Source of the DNA: Naegleria gruberi
Lineage: Eukaryota
Length of the DNA stretch: 64,000 nucleotides
NCBI GenBank assembly: GCA_000004985.1
Contig: GG738916.1
Direction: 5' to 3' (one strand)
Part shown: in pieces, positions 1 to 35,477 of the stretch
How the letters are laid out: every line of letters starts with the position of its first letter
How positions within the stretch are numbered: the stretch's first letter is position 1
The notes under the pieces: model-generated
Told to the model about the DNA's origin: nothing
Database searches by the model: none
Seen by the model: only the letters and a program-made list of their open reading frames with translations
Made by a program: the position numbers and the translations under genes

Positions 1-311
1 GAACCCAAACCCAAACCCAAACCCAAACCCAAACCCAAACCCAAACCCAAACCCAAACCCAAACCCAAACCCAAACCCAAACCCAAACCCAAACCCAAAC
101 CCAAACCCAAACCCAAACCCAAACCCAAACCCAAACCCAACCCAAACCCAAACCCAAACCCAAACCCAAACCCAAACCCAAACCCAAACCCAAACCCAAA
201 CCCAAACCCAAACCCAAACCCAAACCCAAAACCAACCAAACCCAAACCCAAACCCAAACCCAAACCCAAACCCAAACCCAAACCCAAACCCAAACCCAAA
301 CCCAAACCCAA
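1..311 (+). repeat. Telomere-type hexamer array (CCCAAA)n on top strand = (TTTGGG)n, about 50 units with a few variant units (CCCAA near 137-150, CCAAAACCAACCAAA near 225-240). Runs off the window start.
   Basis: Perfect 6-nt periodicity read directly. The C-rich strand is 5'-3' at the left edge, as expected for a left chromosome end. Confidence 0.9.
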
Positions 312-861
312 CTCAACTTTGAAATTTCAGACCCAACAGGGTAAAAATCTTTATGTTTTAAGCAGTGCCTTATAACTTTTTCTAGACTTTATATTTTTCA
401 AATATTTTTATGATTATAGTCAACTCATATGTGTATCTATCATATTTGAAATGATTGTGTTCCAAGTCATACTTATTACTAAGAAATGAAAAATAAAAGT
501 TAAACACTAGTTTTCAGAGTTGATTTTCTGAATAAGTACAGTGAATTAAAATTCCATTTCTTTTTTATTATATAGTGCACAACGTCTAGTATGATATTGG
601 TAAAAGTCAATTTTCAACAATTGGACAACTAAATTTGGGTAATGGATTTACCCTACAGTCTCCCAAACCCAAACCCATTTCATATCATAAGAATCAGAAA
701 TGGTACCATGGGAATGTAAATATTGATTTTACAAAGAGGTATTTAAAGATGGACAGGTCAGACAAAGTCTATCAAAAACATCACTTCAATCAACAAATTA
801 TACATGTAAATGCTCCATTCGATGTGTAGAGATTGAATATCAAGTTTATTTTAACTTTCAT

Positions 862-3800
862 NNNNNNNNNNNNNNNNNNNNNNNNNNNNNNNNNNNNNNN
901 NNNNNNNNNNNNNNNNNNNNNNNNNNNNNNNNNNNNNNNNNNNNNNNNNNNNNNNNNNNNNNNNNNNNNNNNNNNNNNNNNNNNNNNNNNNNNNNNNNNN
1001 NNNNNNNNNNNNNNNNNNNNNNNNNNNNNNNNNNNNNNNNNNNNNNNNNNNNNNNNNNNNNNNNNNNNNNNNNNNNNNNNNNNNNNNNNNNNNNNNNNNN
1101 NNNNNNNNNNNNNNNNNNNNNNNNNNNNNNNNNNNNNNNNNNNNNNNNNNNNNNNNNNNNNNNNNNNNNNNNNNNNNNNNNNNNNNNNNNNNNNNNNNNN
1201 NNNNNNNNNNNNNNNNNNNNNNNNNNNNNNNNNNNNNNNNNNNNNNNNNNNNNNNNNNNNNNNNNNNNNNNNNNNNNNNNNNNNNNNNNNNNNNNNNNNN
1301 NNNNNNNNNNNNNNNNNNNNNNNNNNNNNNNNNNNNNNNNNNNNNNNNNNNNNNNNNNNNNNNNNNNNNNNNNNNNNNNNNNNNNNNNNNNNNNNNNNNN
1401 NNNNNNNNNNNNNNNNNNNNNNNNNNNNNNNNNNNNNNNNNNNNNNNNNNNNNNNNNNNNNNNNNNNNNNNNNNNNNNNNNNNNNNNNNNNNNNNNNNNN
1501 NNNNNNNNNNNNNNNNNNNNNNNNNNNNNNNNNNNNNNNNNNNNNNNNNNNNNNNNNNNNNNNNNNNNNNNNNNNNNNNNNNNNNNNNNNNNNNNNNNNN
1601 NNNNNNNNNNNNNNNNNNNNNNNNNNNNNNNNNNNNNNNNNNNNNNNNNNNNNNNNNNNNNNNNNNNNNNNNNNNNNNNNNNNNNNNNNNNNNNNNNNNN
1701 NNNNNNNNNNNNNNNNNNNNNNNNNNNNNNNNNNNNNNNNNNNNNNNNNNNNNNNNNNNNNNNNNNNNNNNNNNNNNNNNNNNNNNNNNNNNNNNNNNNN
1801 NNNNNNNNNNNNNNNNNNNNNNNNNNNNNNNNNNNNNNNNNNNNNNNNNNNNNNNNNNNNNNNNNNNNNNNNNNNNNNNNNNNNNNNNNNNNNNNNNNNN
1901 NNNNNNNNNNNNNNNNNNNNNNNNNNNNNNNNNNNNNNNNNNNNNNNNNNNNNNNNNNNNNNNNNNNNNNNNNNNNNNNNNNNNNNNNNNNNNNNNNNNN
2001 NNNNNNNNNNNNNNNNNNNNNNNNNNNNNNNNNNNNNNNNNNNNNNNNNNNNNNNNNNNNNNNNNNNNNNNNNNNNNNNNNNNNNNNNNNNNNNNNNNNN
2101 NNNNNNNNNNNNNNNNNNNNNNNNNNNNNNNNNNNNNNNNNNNNNNNNNNNNNNNNNNNNNNNNNNNNNNNNNNNNNNNNNNNNNNNNNNNNNNNNNNNN
2201 NNNNNNNNNNNNNNNNNNNNNNNNNNNNNNNNNNNNNNNNNNNNNNNNNNNNNNNNNNNNNNNNNNNNNNNNNNNNNNNNNNNNNNNNNNNNNNNNNNNN
2301 NNNNNNNNNNNNNNNNNNNNNNNNNNNNNNNNNNNNNNNNNNNNNNNNNNNNNNNNNNNNNNNNNNNNNNNNNNNNNNNNNNNNNNNNNNNNNNNNNNNN
2401 NNNNNNNNNNNNNNNNNNNNNNNNNNNNNNNNNNNNNNNNNNNNNNNNNNNNNNNNNNNNNNNNNNNNNNNNNNNNNNNNNNNNNNNNNNNNNNNNNNNN
2501 NNNNNNNNNNNNNNNNNNNNNNNNNNNNNNNNNNNNNNNNNNNNNNNNNNNNNNNNNNNNNNNNNNNNNNNNNNNNNNNNNNNNNNNNNNNNNNNNNNNN
2601 NNNNNNNNNNNNNNNNNNNNNNNNNNNNNNNNNNNNNNNNNNNNNNNNNNNNNNNNNNNNNNNNNNNNNNNNNNNNNNNNNNNNNNNNNNNNNNNNNNNN
2701 NNNNNNNNNNNNNNNNNNNNNNNNNNNNNNNNNNNNNNNNNNNNNNNNNNNNNNNNNNNNNNNNNNNNNNNNNNNNNNNNNNNNNNNNNNNNNNNNNNNN
2801 NNNNNNNNNNNNNNNNNNNNNNNNNNNNNNNNNNNNNNNNNNNNNNNNNNNNNNNNNNNNNNNNNNNNNNNNNNNNNNNNNNNNNNNNNNNNNNNNNNNN
2901 NNNNNNNNNNNNNNNNNNNNNNNNNNNNNNNNNNNNNNNNNNNNNNNNNNNNNNNNNNNNNNNNNNNNNNNNNNNNNNNNNNNNNNNNNNNNNNNNNNNN
3001 NNNNNNNNNNNNNNNNNNNNNNNNNNNNNNNNNNNNNNNNNNNNNNNNNNNNNNNNNNNNNNNNNNNNNNNNNNNNNNNNNNNNNNNNNNNNNNNNNNNN
3101 NNNNNNNNNNNNNNNNNNNNNNNNNNNNNNNNNNNNNNNNNNNNNNNNNNNNNNNNNNNNNNNNNNNNNNNNNNNNNNNNNNNNNNNNNNNNNNNNNNNN
3201 NNNNNNNNNNNNNNNNNNNNNNNNNNNNNNNNNNNNNNNNNNNNNNNNNNNNNNNNNNNNNNNNNNNNNNNNNNNNNNNNNNNNNNNNNNNNNNNNNNNN
3301 NNNNNNNNNNNNNNNNNNNNNNNNNNNNNNNNNNNNNNNNNNNNNNNNNNNNNNNNNNNNNNNNNNNNNNNNNNNNNNNNNNNNNNNNNNNNNNNNNNNN
3401 NNNNNNNNNNNNNNNNNNNNNNNNNNNNNNNNNNNNNNNNNNNNNNNNNNNNNNNNNNNNNNNNNNNNNNNNNNNNNNNNNNNNNNNNNNNNNNNNNNNN
3501 NNNNNNNNNNNNNNNNNNNNNNNNNNNNNNNNNNNNNNNNNNNNNNNNNNNNNNNNNNNNNNNNNNNNNNNNNNNNNNNNNNNNNNNNNNNNNNNNNNNN
3601 NNNNNNNNNNNNNNNNNNNNNNNNNNNNNNNNNNNNNNNNNNNNNNNNNNNNNNNNNNNNNNNNNNNNNNNNNNNNNNNNNNNNNNNNNNNNNNNNNNNN
3701 NNNNNNNNNNNNNNNNNNNNNNNNNNNNNNNNNNNNNNNNNNNNNNNNNNNNNNNNNNNNNNNNNNNNNNNNNNNNNNNNNNNNNNNNNNNNNNNNNNNN

Positions 3801-4885
3801 NNNNNNNNNNNNNNNNNNNNNNNNNNNNNNNNNNNNNNNNNNNNNNNNNNNNNNNNNNNNNNNNNNNNNNNNNNNNNNNNNNNNNNNNNNNNNNNNNNNN
3901 NNNNNNNNNNNNNNNNNNNNNNNNNNNNNNNNNNNNNNNNNNNNNNNNNNNNNNNNNNNNNNNNNNNNNNNNNNNNNNNNNNNNNNNNNNNNNNNNNNNN
4001 NNNNNNNNNNNNNNNNNNNNNNNNNNNNNNNNNNNNNNNNNNNNNNNNNNNNNNNNNNNNNNNNNNNNNNNNNNNNNNNNNNNNNNNNNNNNNNNNNNNN
4101 NNNNNNNNNNNNNNNNNNNNNNNNNNNNNNNNNNNNNNNNNNNNNNNNNNNNNNNNNNNNNNNNNNNNNNNNNNNNNNNNNNNNNNNNNNNNNNNNNNNN
4201 NNNNNNNNNNNNNNNNNNNNNNNNNNNNNNNNNNNNNNNNNNNNNNNNNNNNNNNNNNNNNNNNNNNNNNNNNNNNNNNNNNNNNNNNNNNNNNNNNNNN
4301 NNNNNNNNNNNNNNNNNNNNNNNNNNNNNNNNNNNNNNNNNNNNNNNNNNNNNNNNNNNNNNNNNNNNNNNNNNNNNNNNNNNNNNNNNNNNNNNNNNNN
4401 NNNNNNNNNNNNNNNNNNNNNNNNNNNNNNNNNNNNNNNNNNNNNNNNNNNNNNNNNNNNNNNNNNNNNNNNNNNNNNNNNNNNNNNNNNNNNNNNNNNN
4501 NNNNNNNNNNNNNNNNNNNNNNNNNNNNNNNNNNNNNNNNNNNNNNNNNNNNNNNNNNNNNNNNNNNNNNNNNNNNNNNNNNNNNNNNNNNNNNNNNNNN
4601 NNNNNNNNNNNNNNNNNNNNNNNNNNNNNNNNNNNNNNNNNNNNNNNNNNNNNNNNNNNNNNNNNNNNNNNNNNNNNNNNNNNNNNNNNNNNNNNNNNNN
4701 NNNNNNNNNNNNNNNNNNNNNNNNNNNNNNNNNNNNNNNNNNNNNNNNNNNNNNNNNNNNNNNNNNNNNNNNNNNNNNNNNNNNNNNNNNNNNNNNNNNN
4801 NNNNNNNNNNNNNNNNNNNNNNNNNNNNNNNNNNNNNNNNNNNNNNNNNNNNNNNNNNNNNNNNNNNNNNNNNNNNNNNNNNNNN
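862..4885. other. N-run (4024 nt): assembly gap or masked sequence
   Basis: Continuous n characters. ORF-track 'proteins' consisting of X across it are artefacts. Confidence 0.95.
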
Positions 4886-6186
4886 TTGAGTTTGCTTCCT
4901 GTTTGATTTTCAGGAAACTTCTAGCTGCTCTCAAATCCAACACTAAAATTCCAGTATCTCCAATGATATTATAATATGCTTCATGCTTTTTGAATAGTTC
5001 TTCCTTATTAGAAACGTCACATCTCAAACTTCTTTGATATTCCCAATAAACTTCTCTAGCCAATGAACCAATGTAATAAGGAATACTGCCTGGAGTTTGA
5101 TCTTCCAAATTAGATCCCCAATCATCTCTAATTTCATGATCATCAAGAATCATTTGATTACTGACTTGACTCAAAATATTTCTAGTTGCAATATGATTCC
5201 AATTGAATCTGTGATACTTTCTGAACTCTTCCTTAATGAGTTCTTCTTCCTCTTCACTAACCTTATTTCTTGAATTGCAAATTTTCACTGCTTCATCAAA
5301 TGCATTATGTCCATAATCTAATAAATCATTAAATATGAATTTTGTCAATTAAGGAGTAAAATAACATACCAGCATATATTTGATCTCCAATATGAAGAAG
5401 AACATCTGTGTTATCAATTTGTTCATTCATTCTTTCCCAAGTATCTTTTTCAGGTTCTCTCTTTTCAATAAAATTGCAACTCACACAATTAATGGTCAAC
5501 TTGTGAGATGAATCTGGAATTTGAGCTAATTTTTCTTCATCAATCATTGTCTTGATAATTCCAACACGAGTTTCACTATTACAAATGTTAGTAAACTCAA
5601 CTCTATAAACAGTGTCAGGTTTCAATCCATCTAACTGAAATACGAAAGGAATATTCGATTTTTCAATGGAAACTGTTTTTTGGAAACAAATGCCTTGTTT
5701 CTTCATTTTCATGAGTGAATTATTCAATACTTTCGAATGAGCACTGTTAGATTTCTTCTTGAAAAACGAATCCTCAACACTGAAATGACTTCTCTCACAA
5801 ACTCCAAAAACTTCCATGTTTAAATGAATAGGTTTCGAACACTCGACCAAAATTCTTGCACTTCTACTTGTAACTGTACCAATTACAGGACCAACTGTCA
5901 TGAATGCATTGTCATGTAATTCAGAAATTGCTCTATTTTGATTTGTGGCAATATCATTAAATGGTTGACTTGGGATGGCTTCAAGAATAAGTTCAATACT
6001 TCCTGATTTAGCATCGATCAAAGGAAATGTTCTTCTTAATGACTTTCCAACCTTTAAATTTAATCCAAAAAATTGAAGCATTACAAATCCAAGAACTGTT
6101 GCAAATTAAAAATGTAAAATATGTAAATATTTAAAAACTTTACCTTCATCTTTCATGATGGAATTCTTATCCACTACTCTCACCAT
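4886..6186 (-). CDS. PhoD-like metallophosphatase (alkaline phosphatase D family), partial; both ends run into N-runs. Visible exons 4886..5317 and 5370..6095; a possible 5' exon 6144..6186 behind a 48-nt intron.
   Basis: Translation contains HIGDQIYA..DYGHNAFDE and ..MILDDHEIRDDWGS (GDxIY and DDHE motifs of PhoD-type phosphatases). One GT-AG intron (gtatgtt...ttattag, 52 nt, 5318-5369) restores the frame between the two ORF-track pieces. Confidence 0.7.
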
Positions 6187-9100
6187 NNNNNNNNNNNNNN
6201 NNNNNNNNNNNNNNNNNNNNNNNNNNNNNNNNNNNNNNNNNNNNNNNNNNNNNNNNNNNNNNNNNNNNNNNNNNNNNNNNNNNNNNNNNNNNNNNNNNNN
6301 NNNNNNNNNNNNNNNNNNNNNNNNNNNNNNNNNNNNNNNNNNNNNNNNNNNNNNNNNNNNNNNNNNNNNNNNNNNNNNNNNNNNNNNNNNNNNNNNNNNN
6401 NNNNNNNNNNNNNNNNNNNNNNNNNNNNNNNNNNNNNNNNNNNNNNNNNNNNNNNNNNNNNNNNNNNNNNNNNNNNNNNNNNNNNNNNNNNNNNNNNNNN
6501 NNNNNNNNNNNNNNNNNNNNNNNNNNNNNNNNNNNNNNNNNNNNNNNNNNNNNNNNNNNNNNNNNNNNNNNNNNNNNNNNNNNNNNNNNNNNNNNNNNNN
6601 NNNNNNNNNNNNNNNNNNNNNNNNNNNNNNNNNNNNNNNNNNNNNNNNNNNNNNNNNNNNNNNNNNNNNNNNNNNNNNNNNNNNNNNNNNNNNNNNNNNN
6701 NNNNNNNNNNNNNNNNNNNNNNNNNNNNNNNNNNNNNNNNNNNNNNNNNNNNNNNNNNNNNNNNNNNNNNNNNNNNNNNNNNNNNNNNNNNNNNNNNNNN
6801 NNNNNNNNNNNNNNNNNNNNNNNNNNNNNNNNNNNNNNNNNNNNNNNNNNNNNNNNNNNNNNNNNNNNNNNNNNNNNNNNNNNNNNNNNNNNNNNNNNNN
6901 NNNNNNNNNNNNNNNNNNNNNNNNNNNNNNNNNNNNNNNNNNNNNNNNNNNNNNNNNNNNNNNNNNNNNNNNNNNNNNNNNNNNNNNNNNNNNNNNNNNN
7001 NNNNNNNNNNNNNNNNNNNNNNNNNNNNNNNNNNNNNNNNNNNNNNNNNNNNNNNNNNNNNNNNNNNNNNNNNNNNNNNNNNNNNNNNNNNNNNNNNNNN
7101 NNNNNNNNNNNNNNNNNNNNNNNNNNNNNNNNNNNNNNNNNNNNNNNNNNNNNNNNNNNNNNNNNNNNNNNNNNNNNNNNNNNNNNNNNNNNNNNNNNNN
7201 NNNNNNNNNNNNNNNNNNNNNNNNNNNNNNNNNNNNNNNNNNNNNNNNNNNNNNNNNNNNNNNNNNNNNNNNNNNNNNNNNNNNNNNNNNNNNNNNNNNN
7301 NNNNNNNNNNNNNNNNNNNNNNNNNNNNNNNNNNNNNNNNNNNNNNNNNNNNNNNNNNNNNNNNNNNNNNNNNNNNNNNNNNNNNNNNNNNNNNNNNNNN
7401 NNNNNNNNNNNNNNNNNNNNNNNNNNNNNNNNNNNNNNNNNNNNNNNNNNNNNNNNNNNNNNNNNNNNNNNNNNNNNNNNNNNNNNNNNNNNNNNNNNNN
7501 NNNNNNNNNNNNNNNNNNNNNNNNNNNNNNNNNNNNNNNNNNNNNNNNNNNNNNNNNNNNNNNNNNNNNNNNNNNNNNNNNNNNNNNNNNNNNNNNNNNN
7601 NNNNNNNNNNNNNNNNNNNNNNNNNNNNNNNNNNNNNNNNNNNNNNNNNNNNNNNNNNNNNNNNNNNNNNNNNNNNNNNNNNNNNNNNNNNNNNNNNNNN
7701 NNNNNNNNNNNNNNNNNNNNNNNNNNNNNNNNNNNNNNNNNNNNNNNNNNNNNNNNNNNNNNNNNNNNNNNNNNNNNNNNNNNNNNNNNNNNNNNNNNNN
7801 NNNNNNNNNNNNNNNNNNNNNNNNNNNNNNNNNNNNNNNNNNNNNNNNNNNNNNNNNNNNNNNNNNNNNNNNNNNNNNNNNNNNNNNNNNNNNNNNNNNN
7901 NNNNNNNNNNNNNNNNNNNNNNNNNNNNNNNNNNNNNNNNNNNNNNNNNNNNNNNNNNNNNNNNNNNNNNNNNNNNNNNNNNNNNNNNNNNNNNNNNNNN
8001 NNNNNNNNNNNNNNNNNNNNNNNNNNNNNNNNNNNNNNNNNNNNNNNNNNNNNNNNNNNNNNNNNNNNNNNNNNNNNNNNNNNNNNNNNNNNNNNNNNNN
8101 NNNNNNNNNNNNNNNNNNNNNNNNNNNNNNNNNNNNNNNNNNNNNNNNNNNNNNNNNNNNNNNNNNNNNNNNNNNNNNNNNNNNNNNNNNNNNNNNNNNN
8201 NNNNNNNNNNNNNNNNNNNNNNNNNNNNNNNNNNNNNNNNNNNNNNNNNNNNNNNNNNNNNNNNNNNNNNNNNNNNNNNNNNNNNNNNNNNNNNNNNNNN
8301 NNNNNNNNNNNNNNNNNNNNNNNNNNNNNNNNNNNNNNNNNNNNNNNNNNNNNNNNNNNNNNNNNNNNNNNNNNNNNNNNNNNNNNNNNNNNNNNNNNNN
8401 NNNNNNNNNNNNNNNNNNNNNNNNNNNNNNNNNNNNNNNNNNNNNNNNNNNNNNNNNNNNNNNNNNNNNNNNNNNNNNNNNNNNNNNNNNNNNNNNNNNN
8501 NNNNNNNNNNNNNNNNNNNNNNNNNNNNNNNNNNNNNNNNNNNNNNNNNNNNNNNNNNNNNNNNNNNNNNNNNNNNNNNNNNNNNNNNNNNNNNNNNNNN
8601 NNNNNNNNNNNNNNNNNNNNNNNNNNNNNNNNNNNNNNNNNNNNNNNNNNNNNNNNNNNNNNNNNNNNNNNNNNNNNNNNNNNNNNNNNNNNNNNNNNNN
8701 NNNNNNNNNNNNNNNNNNNNNNNNNNNNNNNNNNNNNNNNNNNNNNNNNNNNNNNNNNNNNNNNNNNNNNNNNNNNNNNNNNNNNNNNNNNNNNNNNNNN
8801 NNNNNNNNNNNNNNNNNNNNNNNNNNNNNNNNNNNNNNNNNNNNNNNNNNNNNNNNNNNNNNNNNNNNNNNNNNNNNNNNNNNNNNNNNNNNNNNNNNNN
8901 NNNNNNNNNNNNNNNNNNNNNNNNNNNNNNNNNNNNNNNNNNNNNNNNNNNNNNNNNNNNNNNNNNNNNNNNNNNNNNNNNNNNNNNNNNNNNNNNNNNN
9001 NNNNNNNNNNNNNNNNNNNNNNNNNNNNNNNNNNNNNNNNNNNNNNNNNNNNNNNNNNNNNNNNNNNNNNNNNNNNNNNNNNNNNNNNNNNNNNNNNNNN

Positions 9101-9990
9101 NNNNNNNNNNNNNNNNNNNNNNNNNNNNNNNNNNNNNNNNNNNNNNNNNNNNNNNNNNNNNNNNNNNNNNNNNNNNNNNNNNNNNNNNNNNNNNNNNNNN
9201 NNNNNNNNNNNNNNNNNNNNNNNNNNNNNNNNNNNNNNNNNNNNNNNNNNNNNNNNNNNNNNNNNNNNNNNNNNNNNNNNNNNNNNNNNNNNNNNNNNNN
9301 NNNNNNNNNNNNNNNNNNNNNNNNNNNNNNNNNNNNNNNNNNNNNNNNNNNNNNNNNNNNNNNNNNNNNNNNNNNNNNNNNNNNNNNNNNNNNNNNNNNN
9401 NNNNNNNNNNNNNNNNNNNNNNNNNNNNNNNNNNNNNNNNNNNNNNNNNNNNNNNNNNNNNNNNNNNNNNNNNNNNNNNNNNNNNNNNNNNNNNNNNNNN
9501 NNNNNNNNNNNNNNNNNNNNNNNNNNNNNNNNNNNNNNNNNNNNNNNNNNNNNNNNNNNNNNNNNNNNNNNNNNNNNNNNNNNNNNNNNNNNNNNNNNNN
9601 NNNNNNNNNNNNNNNNNNNNNNNNNNNNNNNNNNNNNNNNNNNNNNNNNNNNNNNNNNNNNNNNNNNNNNNNNNNNNNNNNNNNNNNNNNNNNNNNNNNN
9701 NNNNNNNNNNNNNNNNNNNNNNNNNNNNNNNNNNNNNNNNNNNNNNNNNNNNNNNNNNNNNNNNNNNNNNNNNNNNNNNNNNNNNNNNNNNNNNNNNNNN
9801 NNNNNNNNNNNNNNNNNNNNNNNNNNNNNNNNNNNNNNNNNNNNNNNNNNNNNNNNNNNNNNNNNNNNNNNNNNNNNNNNNNNNNNNNNNNNNNNNNNNN
9901 NNNNNNNNNNNNNNNNNNNNNNNNNNNNNNNNNNNNNNNNNNNNNNNNNNNNNNNNNNNNNNNNNNNNNNNNNNNNNNNNNNNNNNNNNN
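6187..9990. other. N-run (3804 nt): assembly gap or masked sequence
   Basis: Continuous n characters. Confidence 0.95.
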
Positions 9991-10495
9991 TATTTTTCAA
10001 GCAAGGACGTACAGTAAATGAAAATTAAGGTCAATTCGGATAGATTTCGCATCGCTAAGAAAACCGTACATGTTTATGACTGTAGAGCTAATGGAGATGG
10101 ATTAATTTAGAAATTGGCGCCAACTTTTGAAATAATTTAAACATTGCAGGTATTACAGTTTAATTTTAACGGTCATCAATAGGTGTAAAACATATCCTTG
10201 TCGTGAAGCTGGAAGACTAGCGTCTTGTTAGCCAAGGAAATATTAAAGAATAAGTAGTTCAGTAGCCAGTTGTAAATTCTATTCGATTTTGTATTAATTC
10301 TTTACACTTGTCTGAAATTGCAACATTTCTGTTGATTTTATTGTGAACATGGAGCCCTTAAGAGGAATTTGGGAAATACCTTGATTTCTTTCATGTCACA
10401 TTTCAACACAATATGGCATCAAACAGTGAGGCATGAAATCCAGATTTTAAGCTGGTTGGACTCAATCCACACACCAACTAAAAAAACTTCAAAAC

Positions 10496-12739
10496 ATGCC
10501 AACAACATCAACTCCTCACAAACGATATTCCACCTCCTTGATTTCTACTGAACTATTTCTTCTAACGATTGCTTGTTTCATTATTCTTCTTTGCTTCACA
10601 TGCAATACAATTGCCAACACAACCAAGAGCTCTTCACAATATTCTTCCCGCCTTTTAACCAAGCAACACATCAGCAACAAGAATAAAAAATTACATCAAC
10701 AACAAGATATTGCACCACATGCTTCCTCCATCACACCACAGGAAGCGCTAGACCTTTCAGCACCACCACTCAAATGTTTNNNNNNNNNNNNNNNNNNNNN
10801 NNNNNNNNNNNNNNNNNNNNNNNNNNNNNGTGTTTACGTGTATGGAAGATTGGTATTTTCTACTTCGTCCAAAGTTGTTGTCTTCAATTCAGCCCAAGCA
10901 ATTCTTCTCACCCAACAAGAACTCGAGGAGTTTACCATTGTGAATGTTCGAGATTTGCTGCTGAATATTGTTTCATTGGATAAGAGTCAGGTATTATCTG
11001 CCGTTCAATCACTAAAGAAGAAATTGAACAAGGCAGATGTGGACGATTATGTCCATCTATCCAGTTCCTACTTGGCAACCTCTCGTAGACAACAACCCAA
11101 GCGACCAACATCATTGGAAGAGGATGATTTGGTTGTATCCATCTCTGAAGGTTTATTGAACATGTCCATTCCTCTCTTGGACCAAGTTAGAACCAATACA
11201 ATCAATGATACCAATGTGTTGAGAGGTGTTGCTAGTGATATTCTCAACTGTTCATCCATATTGTTGGGTTCTGGTTTGAGTGTGAATGCTAGTGCAATAA
11301 GAAGAAATTCACACAACTCTAATATTAGGAATACCATCTATTCATCAGCATCATTGCTCTCACTTATTAGAGCACTCGAATCAACAACAACAACAATCAA
11401 GGTAGAAAATAGTGCTTTCAATTTAATTGTTTCTCATCAGCCAGACATGCAACTTGGTGAGACTCAAGTCCAAGTGCCATCATCTCTTCTCTCCAGTGAC
11501 AATATTGATTTCACACTCGTTACCTATTCTAGTGGGATCGACTTTGAATTGCTACCAGATAGTAATACCACTGGTTTACGTTCTGCTGCCAATATTGTAG
11601 AGCTGAGAAGATTAGTTGATGGTGAATATGATCCTCTTAGTGAGTTACAAAATCCAATAATACTCTCCTTTCCATTTTTCAACAACCTTACAATATTTAA
11701 CAGCAATTTTACACAAAATTTCACTTGCCGATACTATAATACAACAACCAGTGGATGGAGGACAAATGGATGTAAATTGGTCGGCAAGGATGACAAGTTT
11801 ATTACTTGCTCTTGTGATCATACAACAAGCTTTTCAGCATTTGTGGAATATTATCCAATAACAACAGATCCAACAACAGATCCCAACAATCCTACAAACT
11901 CAACAAGTCCTACCAACAAGAACACTGCTCTCAAGGCATTGGATAGTGGTCTGGTCATTTTCAAGATTGTCATTTCTGGTATTCTACTTTTGCTGATAGT
12001 ATCTGTAATGGTTGGTCTTATCATTTTCAGAAAGATGCAACCTGTGAAAAGCAGATACATCTTCCCATTTGTTGGATTGATTGCCCTGTTTGTTGATTTG
12101 GCATTTACTGGTATTGCTTCTAAAGCAGCTACTATTAATGTGCCACTCGATGAGCTAGTCTCTAGCAATAACACTCCAAACATTATCAATAGTATTAGCT
12201 TGGTTGTAACAACAAGTTTGACTGCTGTGGCTATTTGCTCTTACATGGTAGTGTGTATTAGATATATAATGTACAGATACTACTATCAGTGGATGTCGGC
12301 AGTAATTTCTCAAAAGTTAGAAAAGGCAACTAGTAGAGGAATTCGTCTTTTCAAGAATAATACCATCCTATTGGTGTCTGTATTTGCATTGGGTATTTCT
12401 ATTATTGCTTACTTTGTTATGCTTGTTATTTTGAGAAGAACTGACCAAATGAATGCAAAACAATTCTCCTATTCCTCATCAATTTCTCACTTTTTGATCA
12501 TGATAAGCTTCTTGATAGTGATTGGTATTGTTTATATGATTGATTTGATAATGGATTTCAGAACCAGACAAATTTCTGATGAGTTGCACGACATTTCCAA
12601 TGAAATTAATTCTACACAACAAAACACTAAAGGAACAATGGTGACCACTTTTAAGAAGGAAAATACTGCTTTTGTTGCATCTGCCAAATTGAAGCAATTA
12701 TTTGGAAAGAATAGTGCTCCATCTAAAATCTATCACTAA
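10496..12739 (+). CDS. GPS-motif (GAIN-type) multipass membrane receptor, adhesion-GPCR-like; contains a 50-nt N gap at 10780-10829.
   Basis: CRYYNTTTSGWRTNGCKLVGKDDKFITCSCDHTTSFSAFV fits the GPS pattern C-x-C-x-H-x-T-x-F-A-V. It is followed immediately by several long hydrophobic helices (LVIFKIVISGILLLLIVSVMVGLIIF, IFPFVGLIALFVDLAFTGIA, ...). N-terminal signal/anchor, with an N/S/T-rich ectodomain. Confidence 0.6.
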   Translation: MPTTSTPHKRYSTSLISTELFLLTIACFIILLCFTCNTIANTTKSSSQYSSRLLTKQHISNKNKKLHQQQDIAPHASSITPQEALDLSAPPLKCXXXXXXXXXXXXXXXXXXVYVYGRLVFSTSSKVVVFNSAQAILLTQQELEEFTIVNVRDLLLNIVSLDKSQVLSAVQSLKKKLNKADVDDYVHLSSSYLATSRRQQPKRPTSLEEDDLVVSISEGLLNMSIPLLDQVRTNTINDTNVLRGVASDILNCSSILLGSGLSVNASAIRRNSHNSNIRNTIYSSASLLSLIRALESTTTTIKVENSAFNLIVSHQPDMQLGETQVQVPSSLLSSDNIDFTLVTYSSGIDFELLPDSNTTGLRSAANIVELRRLVDGEYDPLSELQNPIILSFPFFNNLTIFNSNFTQNFTCRYYNTTTSGWRTNGCKLVGKDDKFITCSCDHTTSFSAFVEYYPITTDPTTDPNNPTNSTSPTNKNTALKALDSGLVIFKIVISGILLLLIVSVMVGLIIFRKMQPVKSRYIFPFVGLIALFVDLAFTGIASKAATINVPLDELVSSNNTPNIINSISLVVTTSLTAVAICSYMVVCIRYIMYRYYYQWMSAVISQKLEKATSRGIRLFKNNTILLVSVFALGISIIAYFVMLVILRRTDQMNAKQFSYSSSISHFLIMISFLIVIGIVYMIDLIMDFRTRQISDELHDISNEINSTQQNTKGTMVTTFKKENTAFVASAKLKQLFGKNSAPSKIYH

Positions 12740-13210
12740 ATTATTCAATTCAAAATATTTTTTTAACAAGCCTTGTTTCTTCAACATCAGTTTATTTTTC
12801 ACCATATTAACTCAAGAATGTTAGATAACCACTCGATTGGAAATTAATCGAGGAATCCAATTTAATGCTCATGTTCATCAAATTATTTCAAATTTTTTAA
12901 CAAGCCTTTGAAAATTATTGTTCACTCATAATTATCACCAAATCAGAAAATTGATCAATTAGTTCTTTCACAATCTCCATTTTTGAGTGACTACATACTC
13001 ATTTGGATAAGGATGTACGATTTGCTTACATTTTACAGACAGCAAACCTTCTATTTGTGAACAACATGAACAATTAAAATCGAATAAATAGTAGTAGCGC
13101 TCAACAACAGAGTTTCTTCCACTGATACAAAAAAAACAAACAATAACATGATTCACCTTAATGAATCTAACAATCATCAATACATTCATTGTATGAATTT
13201 CATTGAATAA

Positions 13211-15718
13211 NNNNNNNNNNNNNNNNNNNNNNNNNNNNNNNNNNNNNNNNNNNNNNNNNNNNNNNNNNNNNNNNNNNNNNNNNNNNNNNNNNNNNNNNNN
13301 NNNNNNNNNNNNNNNNNNNNNNNNNNNNNNNNNNNNNNNNNNNNNNNNNNNNNNNNNNNNNNNNNNNNNNNNNNNNNNNNNNNNNNNNNNNNNNNNNNNN
13401 NNNNNNNNNNNNNNNNNNNNNNNNNNNNNNNNNNNNNNNNNNNNNNNNNNNNNNNNNNNNNNNNNNNNNNNNNNNNNNNNNNNNNNNNNNNNNNNNNNNN
13501 NNNNNNNNNNNNNNNNNNNNNNNNNNNNNNNNNNNNNNNNNNNNNNNNNNNNNNNNNNNNNNNNNNNNNNNNNNNNNNNNNNNNNNNNNNNNNNNNNNNN
13601 NNNNNNNNNNNNNNNNNNNNNNNNNNNNNNNNNNNNNNNNNNNNNNNNNNNNNNNNNNNNNNNNNNNNNNNNNNNNNNNNNNNNNNNNNNNNNNNNNNNN
13701 NNNNNNNNNNNNNNNNNNNNNNNNNNNNNNNNNNNNNNNNNNNNNNNNNNNNNNNNNNNNNNNNNNNNNNNNNNNNNNNNNNNNNNNNNNNNNNNNNNNN
13801 NNNNNNNNNNNNNNNNNNNNNNNNNNNNNNNNNNNNNNNNNNNNNNNNNNNNNNNNNNNNNNNNNNNNNNNNNNNNNNNNNNNNNNNNNNNNNNNNNNNN
13901 NNNNNNNNNNNNNNNNNNNNNNNNNNNNNNNNNNNNNNNNNNNNNNNNNNNNNNNNNNNNNNNNNNNNNNNNNNNNNNNNNNNNNNNNNNNNNNNNNNNN
14001 NNNNNNNNNNNNNNNNNNNNNNNNNNNNNNNNNNNNNNNNNNNNNNNNNNNNNNNNNNNNNNNNNNNNNNNNNNNNNNNNNNNNNNNNNNNNNNNNNNNN
14101 NNNNNNNNNNNNNNNNNNNNNNNNNNNNNNNNNNNNNNNNNNNNNNNNNNNNNNNNNNNNNNNNNNNNNNNNNNNNNNNNNNNNNNNNNNNNNNNNNNNN
14201 NNNNNNNNNNNNNNNNNNNNNNNNNNNNNNNNNNNNNNNNNNNNNNNNNNNNNNNNNNNNNNNNNNNNNNNNNNNNNNNNNNNNNNNNNNNNNNNNNNNN
14301 NNNNNNNNNNNNNNNNNNNNNNNNNNNNNNNNNNNNNNNNNNNNNNNNNNNNNNNNNNNNNNNNNNNNNNNNNNNNNNNNNNNNNNNNNNNNNNNNNNNN
14401 NNNNNNNNNNNNNNNNNNNNNNNNNNNNNNNNNNNNNNNNNNNNNNNNNNNNNNNNNNNNNNNNNNNNNNNNNNNNNNNNNNNNNNNNNNNNNNNNNNNN
14501 NNNNNNNNNNNNNNNNNNNNNNNNNNNNNNNNNNNNNNNNNNNNNNNNNNNNNNNNNNNNNNNNNNNNNNNNNNNNNNNNNNNNNNNNNNNNNNNNNNNN
14601 NNNNNNNNNNNNNNNNNNNNNNNNNNNNNNNNNNNNNNNNNNNNNNNNNNNNNNNNNNNNNNNNNNNNNNNNNNNNNNNNNNNNNNNNNNNNNNNNNNNN
14701 NNNNNNNNNNNNNNNNNNNNNNNNNNNNNNNNNNNNNNNNNNNNNNNNNNNNNNNNNNNNNNNNNNNNNNNNNNNNNNNNNNNNNNNNNNNNNNNNNNNN
14801 NNNNNNNNNNNNNNNNNNNNNNNNNNNNNNNNNNNNNNNNNNNNNNNNNNNNNNNNNNNNNNNNNNNNNNNNNNNNNNNNNNNNNNNNNNNNNNNNNNNN
14901 NNNNNNNNNNNNNNNNNNNNNNNNNNNNNNNNNNNNNNNNNNNNNNNNNNNNNNNNNNNNNNNNNNNNNNNNNNNNNNNNNNNNNNNNNNNNNNNNNNNN
15001 NNNNNNNNNNNNNNNNNNNNNNNNNNNNNNNNNNNNNNNNNNNNNNNNNNNNNNNNNNNNNNNNNNNNNNNNNNNNNNNNNNNNNNNNNNNNNNNNNNNN
15101 NNNNNNNNNNNNNNNNNNNNNNNNNNNNNNNNNNNNNNNNNNNNNNNNNNNNNNNNNNNNNNNNNNNNNNNNNNNNNNNNNNNNNNNNNNNNNNNNNNNN
15201 NNNNNNNNNNNNNNNNNNNNNNNNNNNNNNNNNNNNNNNNNNNNNNNNNNNNNNNNNNNNNNNNNNNNNNNNNNNNNNNNNNNNNNNNNNNNNNNNNNNN
15301 NNNNNNNNNNNNNNNNNNNNNNNNNNNNNNNNNNNNNNNNNNNNNNNNNNNNNNNNNNNNNNNNNNNNNNNNNNNNNNNNNNNNNNNNNNNNNNNNNNNN
15401 NNNNNNNNNNNNNNNNNNNNNNNNNNNNNNNNNNNNNNNNNNNNNNNNNNNNNNNNNNNNNNNNNNNNNNNNNNNNNNNNNNNNNNNNNNNNNNNNNNNN
15501 NNNNNNNNNNNNNNNNNNNNNNNNNNNNNNNNNNNNNNNNNNNNNNNNNNNNNNNNNNNNNNNNNNNNNNNNNNNNNNNNNNNNNNNNNNNNNNNNNNNN
15601 NNNNNNNNNNNNNNNNNNNNNNNNNNNNNNNNNNNNNNNNNNNNNNNNNNNNNNNNNNNNNNNNNNNNNNNNNNNNNNNNNNNNNNNNNNNNNNNNNNNN
15701 NNNNNNNNNNNNNNNNNN
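13211..15718. other. N-run (2508 nt): gap immediately upstream of the internal telomere-type array
   Basis: Continuous n characters. Confidence 0.95.
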
Positions 15719-16190
15719 CCCAAACCCAAACCCAAACCCAAACCCAAACCCAAACCCAAACCCAAACCCAAACCCAAACCCAAACCCAAACCCAAACCCA
15801 AACCCAAACCCAAACCCAAACCCAAACCCAAACCCAAACCCAAACCCAAACCCAAACCCAAACCCAAACCCAAACCCAAACCCAAACCCAAACCCAAACC
15901 CAACCCCAACCCAAACCCAAACCCAAACCCAAACCCAAACCCAAACCCAACCCAAACCCAAACCCAAACCCAAACCCAAACCCAAACCCAAACCCAAACC
16001 CAAACCCAAACCCAAACCCAAACCCAAACCCAAACCCAAACCCAAACCCAAACCCAAACCCAAACCCAAACCCAAACCCAAACCCAAACCCAAACCCAAA
16101 CCCAAACCCAAACCCAAACCCAAACCCAAACCCAAACCCAAACCCAAACCCAAACCCAAACCCAAACCCAAACCCAAACCCAAACCCAAA
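15719..16190 (+). repeat. Interstitial telomere-type array (CCCAAA)n, about 78 units, same orientation as the terminal array; unit irregularities at ~15901 and ~15950.
   Basis: Direct read. The irregular units cause the PN/QT/PK and GL/VW/GF phase changes seen in the ORF track. Confidence 0.9.
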
Positions 16191-16197
16191 CCTGATA

Positions 16198-17043
16198 ATG
16201 ATTGGATCAAATCAAACGTATTTTTATTTCATTTTCAAGGATATGACTATTGTAGTGTATAATCATGAGAGAAATCTTGTGCAAGTAATTGATTTTTGTA
16301 AGGAAAGCGAGAAGGAAATTATTGACATATCTCGAGGTTGTACTGGAGATTGTGCCTATATTCTCACTAGGAAGCAAGATGAGTATGAACTATTGGTGGA
16401 GAAGGATGGTTGTATTGGTAAAGCAGAGATCGGCGATTTGGTAGGTCAACTGAATAATGTGAGATTTCTATCAAAATATGCTGTAGTCACAAATGATAAT
16501 AAGATTTACATTTTGGCCATGATTATTTCTCACAACCAAGGATTTAAATATAGGGAAACAACCTTTGAAAACAAATCACAAATCATACAATTGGAAAGCG
16601 GATTTGATCACTGTGTCGTTCTCACACAAGATGGAAAAGTTTATGCAATGGGAATCAATCAATATTCTCAATGTGGAATGCTTCCAGATCAATCGAATAT
16701 TGTTAGACAATTTGTTGAAATTATTCCACCAACAATGTATCATTCAAGAGTGTTGCGGATTGGATGTGGATCTACTTATACTGCTCTTCTTACAGAAAGT
16801 CATATTCTTATAGTTGGTAGATTTACTGGAAGTACAGGAACTGTGTGTAAGAATAGAATAGTCCATGCAGGTAATGGAACGCCATGGCTTGTTTCTAAAA
16901 ACTTATTTGGAATTAATGATATTTATTGTGCTGGATGGCATTTATGTGCTATTCAAACAACAGAAATCAATAAGGAAAGACTTTTTGCAAGATTGTTAAA
17001 TAATTCTCAATGGTTTTCAGATGTAGAAATTTTACTAACTTGA
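16198..17043 (+). CDS. RCC1-repeat (regulator of chromosome condensation-like) beta-propeller protein. The start may instead be the Met at 16244.
   Basis: Repeated motifs [26 protein letters not shown] and [19 protein letters not shown] are typical of RCC1 blades. The ORF begins 8 bp after the repeat array. Confidence 0.5.
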
Positions 17044-17280
17044 TGATATACTAATTTTAGAAGAAACACATGGATTTTTACCAAATATTGGTTAATGTTT
17101 AGTGTAATGAACTAATTAACCAAACCTGTGAATAATATTGAAATTTGGAAGTTCTATACATCAGTCAACTTAAACAATTGACTGATCTAAATATTAATGG
17201 AAATAATATTGGACATGAATGATAATCAGTGAAATTGGTGATGAAGGAGTTTTGAGTATTTCAGAAAAATACCACAATAA

Positions 17281-18379
17281 TTACATTATAAAACACCTTT
17301 TGCTTGGTTTAATTTCTTGCAGAAGTGCTGAATCTTTGGAAATTACGTTTTGTAAAATTGGCAAACTATCAACTCTATAAAATCTCTCCATTCTTACACC
17401 TTCCTCAAATATCAAATTAATATTTTCTCCTTTTTTGGCACTACTTTCCACAATACTTGTATTCAACAGTGAAAATTCCTTAATAATTAAATTAATTTCC
17501 TTTTTGAACTCGTTCAAAGTTTCGTCTCTATTTGTTTCCAATAAATCAACCTTATTAATTACAAATACAATAGGTGTATCATTCACTGGTCTTTCCTTAA
17601 TCTTGATGATGTATTCCACTCTGTGTCTGAGTGCCTTCACTGTTTCCAAATTATCCACAGAACAAACAGCAACAAAACAGTTTCCAAATGTTGTATAATT
17701 CTGTTTAAAAGCCTCAAAATCTTGATTACCAGCTAATGATTTCACAATTTCAAATCAATCATCTCATTAAATACCTACCTGTATCCATAATTTCCAATAA
17801 AGCAACTCGGTTATCCACCTGTGCTACTTTCCTATACGAATCTTCTATCGTAGGATCATATCTGAATCCAATTTAATCTATCAATGTGTAAATAACAACA
17901 TACAGATCCACAAAGATATTCACAACATAAAAAATAGTGAGAGCTGATTTTCCAACTCCCTCCTCTCCAATCACCACCATTCTATATTCCTCAGCTGCAC
18001 CATTCTTTGCATTCTTTAAAGTACCTTTCACCGTTTGAAATTTAATAAATCTGGCAAGGATAACTTTTCTCCGCAATTCTCCTCTCTTCATCAAATCAAT
18101 TTTAATTAATTCCAAATCATGAAGTGATTTCCTAGATATTGACCCCTGACATTCGTAAACTCTCCACCAAAAATCATTGAAATAATCTTGCATTTCCTTC
18201 GAGTGAGAAATCTTTTTGGAAAGTGATTGAAAATTGGCTATAAAAACAATATCGGAATGAGTTTCATGTTTTGATCGGAATAGTTTTGGATCAATTGCAA
18301 AGGAGAGAATGTGCTGATAAATTTCTGGAGGTAATGATGAAAAATTGGCCAAGAAATTAAACGGTTGTTTGATTGACAT
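17281..18379 (-). CDS. Ras-family small GTPase with an N-terminal ~130-aa F-box-like extension. Three exons: 18379..17904, 17861..17779, 17732..17281; introns of 42 and 46 nt.
   Basis: G-domain reconstructed across two GT-AG introns: ..[28 protein letters not shown]|[27 protein letters not shown]|[27 protein letters not shown]. This aligns residue-for-residue with Ras ([38 protein letters not shown], NKxD, SAK, CaaX). N-terminal [19 protein letters not shown] matches the F-box consensus. True start is the ATG at 18379; the ORF-track start is a TTG. Confidence 0.75.
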
Positions 18380-18495
18380 TTTTTTTGAAATAAAATAAAA
18401 ACAAAAATAATTCAAAATAATTCAAAATAAATTGAAATAGGAATTGAGGAACAATATTTGCAAAATATATGTTTTACCAAAATATAAAATGGAAC

Positions 18496-18567
18496 GGGGA
18501 CCAGTGGGAATCGAACCCACGGCCTCTCGCACCCAAAGCGAGAATCATACCACTAGACCATGGTCCC
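18496..18567 (-). tRNA. tRNA-Pro (anticodon UGG)
   Basis: Reverse-complement gives GGGACCATGGTCTAGTGGTATGATTCTCGCTTTGGGTGCGAGAGGCCGTGGGTTCGATTCCCACTGGTCCCC. Anticodon stem CTCGC/GCGAG with loop TTTGGGT (anticodon TGG, G37). T-arm GTGGGTTCGATTCCCAC. Acceptor GGGACCA/TGGTCCC. C73 discriminator as expected for Pro. Confidence 0.85.
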
Positions 18568-18638: not shown

Positions 18639-20549
18639 TTACAACATTTTTGAAACATGATAACCCAGTGCAAATAAACCCCATACCAGTATCACTATTT
18701 GAGACCACAACTGTATTTCCAAATACAGTGTCATTGTAATTGTTGATAACAAACTCAACAAGCAACCAACTAAGGGAGCATCCTTATATTTCCTCTTTTT
18801 TATCAGCATAAATGGCATGATAATGAACAAGAATGAAAGAAGGAGAAGAAGATATNNNNNNNNNNNNNNNNNNNNNNNNNNNNNNNNNNNNNNNNNNNNN
18901 NNNNNNNNNNNNNNNNNNNNNNNNNNNNNNNNNNNNNNNNNNNNNNNNNNNNNNNNNNNNNNNNNNNNNNNNNNNNNNNNNNNNNNNNNNNNNNNNNNNN
19001 NNNNNNNNNNNNNNNNNNNNNNNNNNNNNNNNNNNNNNNNNNNNNNNNNNNNNNNNNNNNNNNNNNNNNNNNNNNNNNNNNNNNNNNNNNNNNNNNNNNN
19101 NNNNNNNNNNNNNNNNNNNNNNNNNNNNNNNNNNNNNNNNNNNNNNNNNNNNNNNNNNNNNNNNNNNNNNNNNNNNNNNNNNNNNNNNNNNNNNNNNNNN
19201 NNNNNNNNNNNNNNNNNNNNNNNNNNNNNNNNNNNNNNNNNNNNNNNNNNNNNNNNNNNNNNNNNNNNNNNNNNNNNNNNNNNNNNNNNNNNNNNNNNNN
19301 NNNNNNNNNNNNNNNNNNNNNNNNNNNNNNNNNNNNNNNNNNNNNNNNNNNNNNNNNNNNNNNNNNNNNNNNNNNNNNNNNNNNNNNNNNNNNNNNNNNN
19401 NNNNNNNNNNNNNNNNNNNNNNNNNNNNNNNNNNNNNNNNNNNNNNNNNNNNNNNNNNNNNNNNNNNNNNNNNNNNNNNNNNNNNNNNNNNNNNNNNNNN
19501 NNNNNNNNNNNNNNNNNNNNNNNNNNNNNNNNNNNNNNNNNNNNNNNNNNNNNNNNNNNNNNNNNNNNNNNNNNNNNNNNNNNNNNNNNNNNNNNNNNNN
19601 NNNNNNNNNNNNNNNNNNNNNNNNNNNNNNNNNNNNNNNNNNNNNNNNNNNNNNNNNNNNNNNNNNNNNNNNNNNNNNNNNNNNNNNNNNNNNNNNNNNN
19701 NNNNNNNNNNNNNNNNNNNNNNNNNNNNNNNNNNNNNNNNNNNNNNNNNNNNNNNNNNNNNNNNNNNNNNNNNNNNNNNNNNNNNNNNNNNNNNNNNNNN
19801 NNNNNNNNNNNNNNNNNNNNNNNNNNNNNNNNNNNNNNNNNNNNNNNNNNNNNNNNNNNNNNNNNNNNNNNNNNNNNNNNNNNNNNNNNNNNNNNNNNNN
19901 NNNNNNNNNNNNNNNNNNNNNNNNNNNNNNNNNNNNNNNNNNNNNNNNNNNNNNNNNNNNNNNNNNNNNNNNNNNNNNNNNNNNNNNNNNNNNNNNNNNN
20001 NNNNNNNNNNNNNNNNNNNNNNNNNNNNNNNNNNNNNNNNNNNNNNNNNNNNNNNNNNNNNNNNNNNNNNNNNNNNNNNNNNNNNNNNNNNNNNNNNNNN
20101 NNNNNNNNNNNNNNNNNNNNNNNNNNNNNNNNNNNNNNNNNNNNNNNNNNNNNNNNNNNNNNNNNNNNNNNNNNNNNNNNNNNNNNNNNNNNNNNNNNNN
20201 NNNNNNNNNNNNNNNNNNNNNNNNNNNNNNNNNNNNNNNNNNNNNNNNNNNNNNNNNNNNNNNNNNNNNNNNNNNNNNNNNNNNNNNNNNNNNNNNNNNN
20301 NNNNNNNNNNNNNNNNNNNNNNNNNNNNNNNNNNNNNNNNNNNNNNNNNNNNNNNNNNNNNNNNNNNNNNNNNNNNNNNNNNNNNNNNNNNNNNNNNNNN
20401 NNNNNNNNNTGATCGGCAGTTTTTGAAATTTCTTCTAATTGTTCATTGAAAATATATCCCATTAGATACAAGAGTTGACCTAAAAGTGTTGATTTACCAC
20501 TGCCTGATTGCCCGATCAGTGAAATGGTGTGGGTTGGCTTATCGAGCAT
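18639..20549 (-). CDS. Probable ABCG-type half transporter (N-terminal nucleotide-binding domain, C-terminal membrane domain); middle hidden by the 1564-nt N-run at 18846-20409.
   Basis: The N-terminal visible part has Walker A LIGQSGSGKSTLLGQ. The C-terminal visible part ends in a hydrophobic helix (VILVWGLFALGYHV). Whether the two pieces are one gene cannot be verified through the gap. Confidence 0.4.
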   Translation of the reverse strand: MLDKPTHTISLIGQSGSGKSTLLGQLLYLMGYIFNEQLEEISKTADXXXXXXXXXXXXXXXXXXXXXXXXXXXXXXXXXXXXXXXXXXXXXXXXXXXXXXXXXXXXXXXXXXXXXXXXXXXXXXXXXXXXXXXXXXXXXXXXXXXXXXXXXXXXXXXXXXXXXXXXXXXXXXXXXXXXXXXXXXXXXXXXXXXXXXXXXXXXXXXXXXXXXXXXXXXXXXXXXXXXXXXXXXXXXXXXXXXXXXXXXXXXXXXXXXXXXXXXXXXXXXXXXXXXXXXXXXXXXXXXXXXXXXXXXXXXXXXXXXXXXXXXXXXXXXXXXXXXXXXXXXXXXXXXXXXXXXXXXXXXXXXXXXXXXXXXXXXXXXXXXXXXXXXXXXXXXXXXXXXXXXXXXXXXXXXXXXXXXXXXXXXXXXXXXXXXXXXXXXXXXXXXXXXXXXXXXXXXXXXXXXXXXXXXXXXXXXXXXXXXXXXXXXXXXXXXXXXXXXXXXXXXXXXXXXXXXXXXXXXXXXXXXXXXXXXXXXXXXXXXXXXXXXXXXXXXXXXXXXXXXXXXXXXXXXXXXXXXXXXYLLLLLSFLFIIMPFMLIKKRKYKDAPLVGCLLSLLSTITMTLYLEIQLWSQIVILVWGLFALGYHVSKML

Positions 20550-21802: not shown

Positions 21803-21873
21803 CTCGAGTGCCGGGAATTGAACCCGGGTCGCCAGAGTGACAGTCTGGAATGCTACCACTATACCACACCCGA
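21803..21873 (-). tRNA. tRNA-Asp (anticodon GUC)
   Basis: Reverse-complement TCGGGTGTGGTATAGTGGTAGCATTCCAGACTGTCACTCTGGCGACCCGGGTTCAATTCCCGGCACTCGAG. Anticodon stem CCAGA/TCTGG with loop CTGTCAC (GTC). T-arm CCGGGTTCAATTCCCGG. Closely parallels animal tRNA-Asp. A T5 run follows the 3' end (Pol III terminator). Confidence 0.85.
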
Positions 21874-32564: not shown

Positions 32565-32930
32565 TCGGGTGTGGTATAGTGGTAGCATTCCAGACTGTCA
32601 CTCTGGCGACCCGGGTTCAATTTGTTTTGTTAGTGTGTGGGTAATAGTTGAATGATATCGGTCATTCCTTATTTGGAAATTTCATTCCCGGTACCCATGG
32701 TATGAACGAGAGTTTTGGTTGTTAATCATTTCTCGAGTGGTTTGGATGAAGTTACAGTTATGAATAATTATCAAGGAATTGGAGACACAATACTACAATA
32801 ATAATGTGTTTATTAAATGTTAATTTAGCGTCACGGTGATTACTCTGTGTTTTTATAATTTAATNNNNNNNNNNNNNNNNNNNNNNNNNNNNNNNNNNNN
32901 NNNNNNNNNNNNNNTATTCCGGCACTCGAG
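32565..32930 (+). pseudogene. Second tRNA-Asp(GUC) copy split in the T-loop. 5' portion 32565-32622 (through GGGTTCAATT). 3' portion 32917-32930 (TTCCGGCACTCGAG plus T5 terminator). About 294 bp of unrelated sequence including a 50-N gap lies between.
   Basis: 58/58 identity to the intact tRNA-Asp at 21803-21873 up to the T-loop. After the N-run, the T-stem 3' strand and acceptor 3' strand reappear with the same T-rich 3' flank. Confidence 0.7.
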
Positions 32931-35100: not shown

Positions 35101-35389
35101 CTTGTTGGGGATGTGATTTGTTTTTTTTCTTCAATCATTTCAATGTAAAAGTTGAAATGTGGAAAGTTAAAGTTCCAGATTAGAATAACCGTACATTGCG
35201 GCCTTAGAAAACCGCTCCAAATTAGTAAGATTCAATGATTGAACATGATTGAATGGCTTAGCACAGCATGTGTCTCCGCCAAGTTTTTAACTTGAGGAAA
35301 ACTAAGGAAGTCTTTGAATTTCAATGCTATTAAAAATAGCAGTGTTAAGAGAGAGCAGTACTTCAAAGAAAGAGATTAAAATGCTAAAA

Positions 35390-35477
35390 GGCGACTGAGG
35401 GAATTGAACCCTCGACCCTCAGTTATCTCAGCATTTCTGCCTACAAGACTGATGCACTGCCACTGTGCTAAGCCGCC
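35390..35477 (-). tRNA. tRNA-Thr (anticodon UGU) with a 17-nt intron at the canonical 37/38 position
   Basis: Reverse-complement GGCGGCTTAGCACAGTGGCAGTGCATCAGTCTTGTA[GGCAGAAATGCTGAGAT]AACTGAGGGTCGAGGGTTCAATTCCCTCAGTCGCC. Acceptor GGCGGCT/AGTCGCC. D-arm GCAC..GTGC. Anticodon stem TCAGT/ACTGA with loop CTTGTA|A. T-arm GAGGGTTCAATTCCCTC. Confidence 0.7.

Follow-up and report, generated by a model that had tools for sequence, protein, structure and literature searches.

Terminal minisatellites of the TnAmGo type were surveyed in 143 genome assemblies by Fulneckova et al. (2013, Genome Biol Evol; PMC3622300), who put forward TTTGGG as the telomere candidate for Naegleria gruberi from assembly position and orientation alone, counted this organism among the genomes with a convincing terminal pattern and stated that experimental tests of the candidate were still required. 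Internal blocks were also present in most genomes with terminal repeats in that survey (PMC3622300). The TTTGGG motif of N. gruberi is therefore already known since 2013 (PMC3622300), and finding the motif alone adds nothing beyond the published claim. Within the searchable literature, no account of Naegleria telomeres beyond this survey and no Bal31 or TRAP tests of terminal position in Naegleria were found, and telomeres are mentioned neither in the nanopore paper on N. fowleri nor in the pangenome paper on Naegleria. Units of the same type are known from Paramecium, in which TTGGGG and TTTGGG are mixed via template stuttering (PMC5855555). De novo telomere addition is well known for yeast, for Plasmodium falciparum (pfhrp2 deletions) and for human terminal deletions (PMC10055226, PMC5550746, PMC11458181, PMC4427916); in Naegleria, telomere healing is not reported in the searchable literature. 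Naegleria is described as mainly a heterozygous diploid that shows aneuploidy and loss of heterozygosity and whose chromosome sizes vary by strain (PMC9928731).

The window, i.e. the whole stretch of 64,000 nucleotides analysed here, forms the left end of a 245-kb scaffold from the NEG-M assembly of Naegleria gruberi. The product of ORF 41553-43301 (-) is 100% identical to EFC37631.1, annotated as 'predicted protein [Naegleria gruberi]' on the 245,038-bp NEG-M scaffold, and the order of the UniProt accessions fits a position at the scaffold start, with D2VZT2 (GPS gene) at about 10.5 kb, then D2VZT3 (Ras gene), and D2VZU3, eleven entries on, at 41.5 kb. The window is gap-rich and has a GC content of about 35%, which fits the figures published for NEG-M (35% GC, 784 scaffolds and 1977 contigs; PMC6831594). 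Its first 15,718 bases include 10,386 N in four gaps and thus hold 5.3 kb of actual sequence. Eukaryotic Pfam domains (RGS, SET, GPS, RCC1 and Ras) are present. ORFs read with the standard code stay open up to 1973 aa, little length is gained by relaxing the stops, and of the 22 long ORFs, 16 stop at TAA, 3 at TGA and 3 at TAG, which bears out the original prediction that no ciliate with a reassigned code is involved. Given the use of all three stops and the 100% identity to an N. gruberi protein, a ciliate origin was rejected.

The window opens with the letters gaa followed by (CCCAAA)n, so that the assembled molecule bears, at its very end, an array starting at base 2. Tandem Repeats Finder delimited this array to positions 2-311 (+), with a period of 6, 52.2 copies, 97% matches and a score of 592. 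The telomere-type array that had been predicted for the extreme left is accordingly confirmed, except that it cannot be called 'pure', since its 47 perfect CCCAAA units are accompanied by five variants (CCCAA at 136 and 307, CCCAAAA at 225, CCAA at 232 and CCAAA at 236). Where dinucleotide shuffles predict 0.01 copies of the dimer CCCAAACCCAAA, the window contains 119, and all 119 lie on the + strand of the 64 kb. The C-rich strand thus runs 5' to 3' inward and stands on top at the left end, as predicted, and the G-run of the T3G3 unit lies on the strand that runs 5' to 3' toward the end. Over the 64 kb, the motif is confined to the scaffold start, one contig edge and a remnant of 16 bp, without any change of strand, and no TTAGGG- or TTGGGG-type arrays were found in the window. 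The array at 2-311 has no sequence on its left and hence lacks the two unique flanks of an interstitial repeat or microsatellite. A mixture of T2G4 and T3G3 units as in Paramecium is not seen either, the two long arrays together holding a single CCCCAA unit, and TAA, TAG and TGA all terminate long ORFs. Position and orientation, together with the published naming of TTTGGG as the candidate for exactly N. gruberi (PMC3622300), support (TTTGGG)n as the telomeric repeat of this species, as had been proposed from the sequence. The coordinates of the features of the window are collected in the table below.

Table. Features of the 64,000-nucleotide window at the left end of the 245-kb NEG-M scaffold, with metagenome contigs that end in the same repeat in the last row.
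Feature	Position	Strand	Basis or detail
Terminal telomere array, (CCCAAA)n, i.e. (TTTGGG)n on the strand 5' to 3' toward the end	2..311	+	repeat finder, unit count
AT-rich (28% GC) telomere-adjacent stretch without coding signal, up to the first gap	312..861		composition
Telomere-like remnant CCCAAACCCAAACCCA, 16 bp, 2.7 copies, 350 bp inside the terminal array	662..677	+ (array strand)	Tandem Repeats Finder
N runs	862-4885, 6187-9990, 10780-10829, 13211-15718, 18856-20409, 32865-32914		gapped scaffold
PhoD-like phosphatase fragment, two exons, gap-cut on both sides	4887..6105	-	readable part of the outer segment
GPS-motif membrane protein gene NAEGRDRAFT_74608, EFC37583.1, annotated on the 245,038-bp scaffold	10496..12739	+	collinear with L121 421-2985
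Assembly gap, 2508 N	13211..15718		N run
Inner telomere array, 474 bp, orientation as terminal array	15719..16192	+	76 perfect units, 2 CCCAA, 1 CCCCAA
3' part (codon 171 to stop) of RCC1-like gene NAEGRDRAFT_76344	16193..17043	+	protein identity, L121 alignment
Ras-family small GTPase gene EFC37626.1, on the 245,038-bp scaffold	17284..18421	-	next gene in window and L121, anchors synteny right of the breakpoint
tRNA-Pro (TGG)	18496-18567	-	Rfam
tRNA-Asp (GTC)	21803-21873	-	Rfam
tRNA-Thr (TGT), 91 bases	35388-35478	-	Rfam
JAESGV01 contigs L006, L028, L030, L041, L053, L076, L077, L081, L082, L083, L101, L114, L119			GC 22-39%

A second array was detected by Tandem Repeats Finder at 15719-16192 (+; 79.3 copies, 98% matches, score 927). 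This array, which is longer than the terminal one, and the remnant at 662-677 are both absent from the original prediction. The inner array begins at the first base after the 2508-N gap and stops exactly at 16192/16193, where it meets the interior of a coding sequence (CCCAAACC joined to TGATAATG). Homology to the intact sequence resumes exactly at 16193, which corresponds to codon 171 of an RCC1-like gene. Read on the G-strand, the window continues from ...CCAATCATTATCA into GGTTTGGGTTTGGG, whereas the intact allele continues from the same ...CCAATCATTATCA into AATTTCTC (also displayed as ...CCAATCATTATCA followed by AATTTCTCTTTTCG); the short-form junction is CCCAAACC / TGATAATGATTGG as against GAGAAATT / TGATAATGATTGG in the intact form. 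The primer end shows no microhomology or complementarity to the repeat at the 16192/16193 junction. The inner array does not have unique sequence on both sides, for an assembly gap lies on its left and the contig beyond, ending at 13210, closes in unique sequence. At 16192/16193, the repeats adjoin unique sequence directly and are oriented as at a newly made end.

The ORF at 16198-17043 starts 5 bp past the inner array and encodes 281 aa with RCC1 repeats. The sole database match of its product was the intact 453-aa protein EFC35992.1 / XP_002668736.1, with which it shares residues 173-453 at 100% identity. This intact gene, NAEGRDRAFT_76344, sits on another NEG-M scaffold, of 18,443 bp, tied to the locus of the window by this one protein. 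In the window copy, telomere repeats stand in place of the promoter and the first 170 codons, and no product matching the truncated 281-aa form is recorded in other assemblies. The 90% cluster of EFC35992.1 has a second 453-aa member, which comes from an ENA metagenome (ERZ929261 / ERR1078381). The contig of this member, an independent N. gruberi-like sequence of 8644 bp here called L121 (project PRJEB11402), is 98-99% identical to NEG-M over 8.6 kb and carries, in this order, the GPS-motif gene, about 2.9 kb with small ORFs only, the full RCC1-like gene and the Ras gene, which is also the gene order of the window. Using BLAST, window positions 10830-13208 were aligned with L121 1088-3456 at 99.0% identity and positions 16193-18397 with L121 6443-8644 at 98.4%; two shorter matches between L121 and the window lie further left. 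No CCCAAA dimer is present in L121. An intact allele showing the lost distal sequence thus exists both as EFC35992.1 in NEG-M and in the collinear L121. The metagenome from which L121 derives is a possible second-strain source for comparison with NEG-M.

The spacing of the two alignments agrees with the intact form. The gap of 2508 N, the array of 474 bp and 2 further bases add up to 2984 bp, and the corresponding intact interval of L121 (3457-6442), which includes codons 1-170 of the RCC1-like gene, measures 2986 bp. The order of the scaffold therefore reflects the intact form, and the gap estimate evidently derives from clones of that form. In the reference, the GPS and Ras genes of NEG-M are annotated on the 245,038-bp scaffold only, as the consecutive entries D2VZT2 and D2VZT3, the truncated RCC1-like copy at 16193-17043 has no gene model between them, and no copy of either neighbour is annotated on the 18,443-bp scaffold. 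The reference assembly hence appears to be split or composite at the RCC1-like locus.

Taken together, these observations make it very probable that the terminal array is a telomere, and probable that two versions of the same chromosome end are combined in the scaffold, the shorter being a capped terminal deletion of 15.7 kb. The inner array itself is probably a neotelomere, formed on a terminal deletion that was stabilised by de novo telomere addition. On balance, we also favour the more detailed proposal that two end forms coexist in the NEG-M reference, with the break at codon 171 of NAEGRDRAFT_76344 and (TTTGGG)n added without primer microhomology. The original prediction held that a repeat missing from other scaffold ends and abundant internally would be an ordinary microsatellite. 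At face value, the array at 15719-16192 is such an internal copy; best read as a second, truncated chromosome end, it strengthens the telomere interpretation instead.

In the long form, the arm would extend out to the terminal array at 2-311. In the short form, a break inside the RCC1-like coding sequence would have removed the outer 15.7 kb, and the broken end ...ATTATCA-3' would have been capped directly by de novo TTTGGG repeats, of which at least 474 bp (15719-16192) are represented. Telomerase extends the 3' G-rich strand of a chromosome end by means of its RNA template. Here, one would expect a template holding some 1.5 CCCAAA units, such as CCCAAACCC, and the first bases added onto ...TCA-3' would be GG, followed by TTTGGG. 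We infer from the junction that telomerase made these repeats and that the short form is present in cells, beyond one clone. The retained part is protein-identical to the intact NEG-M allele, which suggests that the event was recent and concerned one chromosome copy or part of the culture. Given the heterozygous diploidy, aneuploidy and variable chromosome sizes of Naegleria (PMC9928731), such a variant could be tolerated.

A different explanation keeps the terminal array as a true telomere and takes the inner one for a chimeric plasmid insert or read that the assembler used to extend a contig into the gap. The 474 bp of the array are short enough for one Sanger read, the array sits exactly at the contig edge beside the gap, the size of that gap matches the intact allele and the truncated product is absent from other datasets, all of which speak for such an origin. 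At a Sanger coverage of NEG-M that we take to be about 8x, however, intact reads should outvote a single chimera. Moreover, the intact gene was assigned to a scaffold of its own, of 18,443 bp, and D2VZT2 and D2VZT3 have no gene model between them, which suggests that the assembler had two well-supported paths, and the array is in the orientation that a real end requires, an outcome that a chimera would give with a 50% chance. We therefore consider a chimeric origin of the inner array unlikely.

The inner array could also be a true interstitial telomeric sequence, inserted during the repair of a double-strand break that cost the RCC1-like gene its 5' half, with the chromosome continuing leftward. 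The scaffold does place contigs to the left of the inner array, and internal blocks are frequent in genomes with terminal repeats (PMC3622300). However, in no contig of the window does unique sequence on the left pass into CCCAAA, the one ending at 13210 stopping in unique sequence collinear with L121, and the spacing equals the repeat-free intact distance within 2 bp, so that the intact form suffices to account for the links by which the contigs were ordered. This makes an interstitial array highly improbable. As for CCCAAA being an ordinary microsatellite at the scaffold edge, with another repeat as the real telomere, 91 of the 125 (CCCAAA)6 arrays found in metagenome contigs are internal, so the motif is also a plain microsatellite in other organisms, but its restriction to three sites and one strand of the window, the lack of any TTAGGG-type array there, the terminal pattern judged convincing assembly-wide (PMC3622300) and the clean gene truncation that the inner array abuts render this idea hardly credible.

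The metagenome scan that yielded these arrays comprised 120 loci with (CCCAAA)6, none of which showed DNA or protein similarity to the window. Besides the internal arrays, 26 were at a locus end in telomere orientation and 8 at a locus end in the opposite orientation (locus ends being mostly those of whole contigs). Thirteen JAESGV01 contigs each end in (TTTGGG)n in telomere orientation, each with a different unique junction. Among them, L082 has TTGGGG units beside the junction, L101, L053 and L028 contain ORFs that become much longer if TGA is the sole stop, as in ciliates, and L083 carries two PPR-DYW genes. A similarity search from these contigs gave, beyond the match to itself, plant PPR proteins alone, at 22-24% identity. 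Two further loci, L063 (LUMJ01000369.1) and L075 (VFQO010000557.1), have TTTGGG caps in telomere orientation and are gene-dense, apparently intron-poor and of 31-36% GC, with housekeeping genes for NFACT, a class II tRNA synthetase and a copper P-type ATPase. Pure TTTGGG ends are thus present in other eukaryotes that are uncultured; on Naegleria, the scan adds nothing further.

The original prediction had also marked the first ~13 kb as subtelomeric. This designation holds by position; it does not hold in the sense of a repeated element, for the readable parts are ordinary genes that are single-copy in the window. In a self-BLAST of the contigs of the window, 1-13210 had no similarity to the rest of the window except through the arrays, which indicates that the outer segment does not duplicate the neighbouring region as a haplotig and is no subtelomeric element repeated inside the window. 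The region of the GPS-motif gene (from 10143) is 95-99% conserved in L121, which represents another strain. In the telomere-adjacent stretch, neither the remnant at 662-677 nor the whole of 312-861 matched an RNA family in Rfam at E<=1, and the fold z-score of the 662-677 region, -0.67, is not unusual. On these two results, the remnant was rejected as a telomerase RNA template.

Elsewhere in the window, Rfam families other than the three tRNAs were not detected, hence no match to a telomerase RNA, a gene that need not lie here. The tRNA-Thr gene probably contains an intron, given its length of 91 bases. An uninterrupted ORF of 1966 aa at 35611-41511 (-) carries the domain series of a bacterial alpha-2-macroglobulin (Big_5, MG2, A2M bait region, A2M and bacterial MG10), and this gene was possibly acquired from bacteria.

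As far as the searchable literature shows, the description of the inner array as a probable neotelomere is new. If true, it would be the first case of telomere healing at sequence level in Heterolobosea, and would provide functional evidence, beyond the positional, that the telomerase of Naegleria synthesises TTTGGG. The clean junction of TTTGGG with the interior of a gene, combined with the intact allele, would be the signature of a telomerase-made end and is ready for a PCR assay. The locus also flags a composite region of the reference, with an unannotated truncated gene copy here and the intact copy on the 18-kb scaffold, and it would offer a concrete instance of structural variation at a chromosome end in an organism for which shifts in ploidy and differences in chromosome size are on record without being well resolved.

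Compared with the candidate of the 2013 survey, the present case shares species, assembly, unit and kind of evidence. The motif itself is no different, whereas the main text of the survey contains no locus-level description and no mention of the inner array or of its junction within a gene (PMC3622300). TTTGGG units are common to N. gruberi and Paramecium, but one CCCCAA stands among about 131 units in the N. gruberi arrays, and the source here is a heterolobosean amoeba with the standard code. Interstitial telomeric sequences at the boundaries of subtelomeric blocks, such as the X / Y' junctions of yeast, likewise give two head-to-tail arrays kilobases apart near a chromosome end. Unlike those blocks, the outer 15.7 kb have no second copy in the window, and the part covered by L121 (from 10143) is syntenic in another strain and repeat-free between the GPS and RCC1-like genes.

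When telomerase heals a broken end in yeast or in humans, some microhomology at the junction is usual. The N. gruberi junction, which is drawn from an assembly and not from reads or PCR, differs from such typical healing in having none. As in the healed ends of S. cerevisiae, in those of P. falciparum and in human neotelomeres, the repeats are joined to unique sequence (coding sequence in N. gruberi) in the orientation of a new end, an intact allele can be set beside the broken one, and the distal segment is missing.
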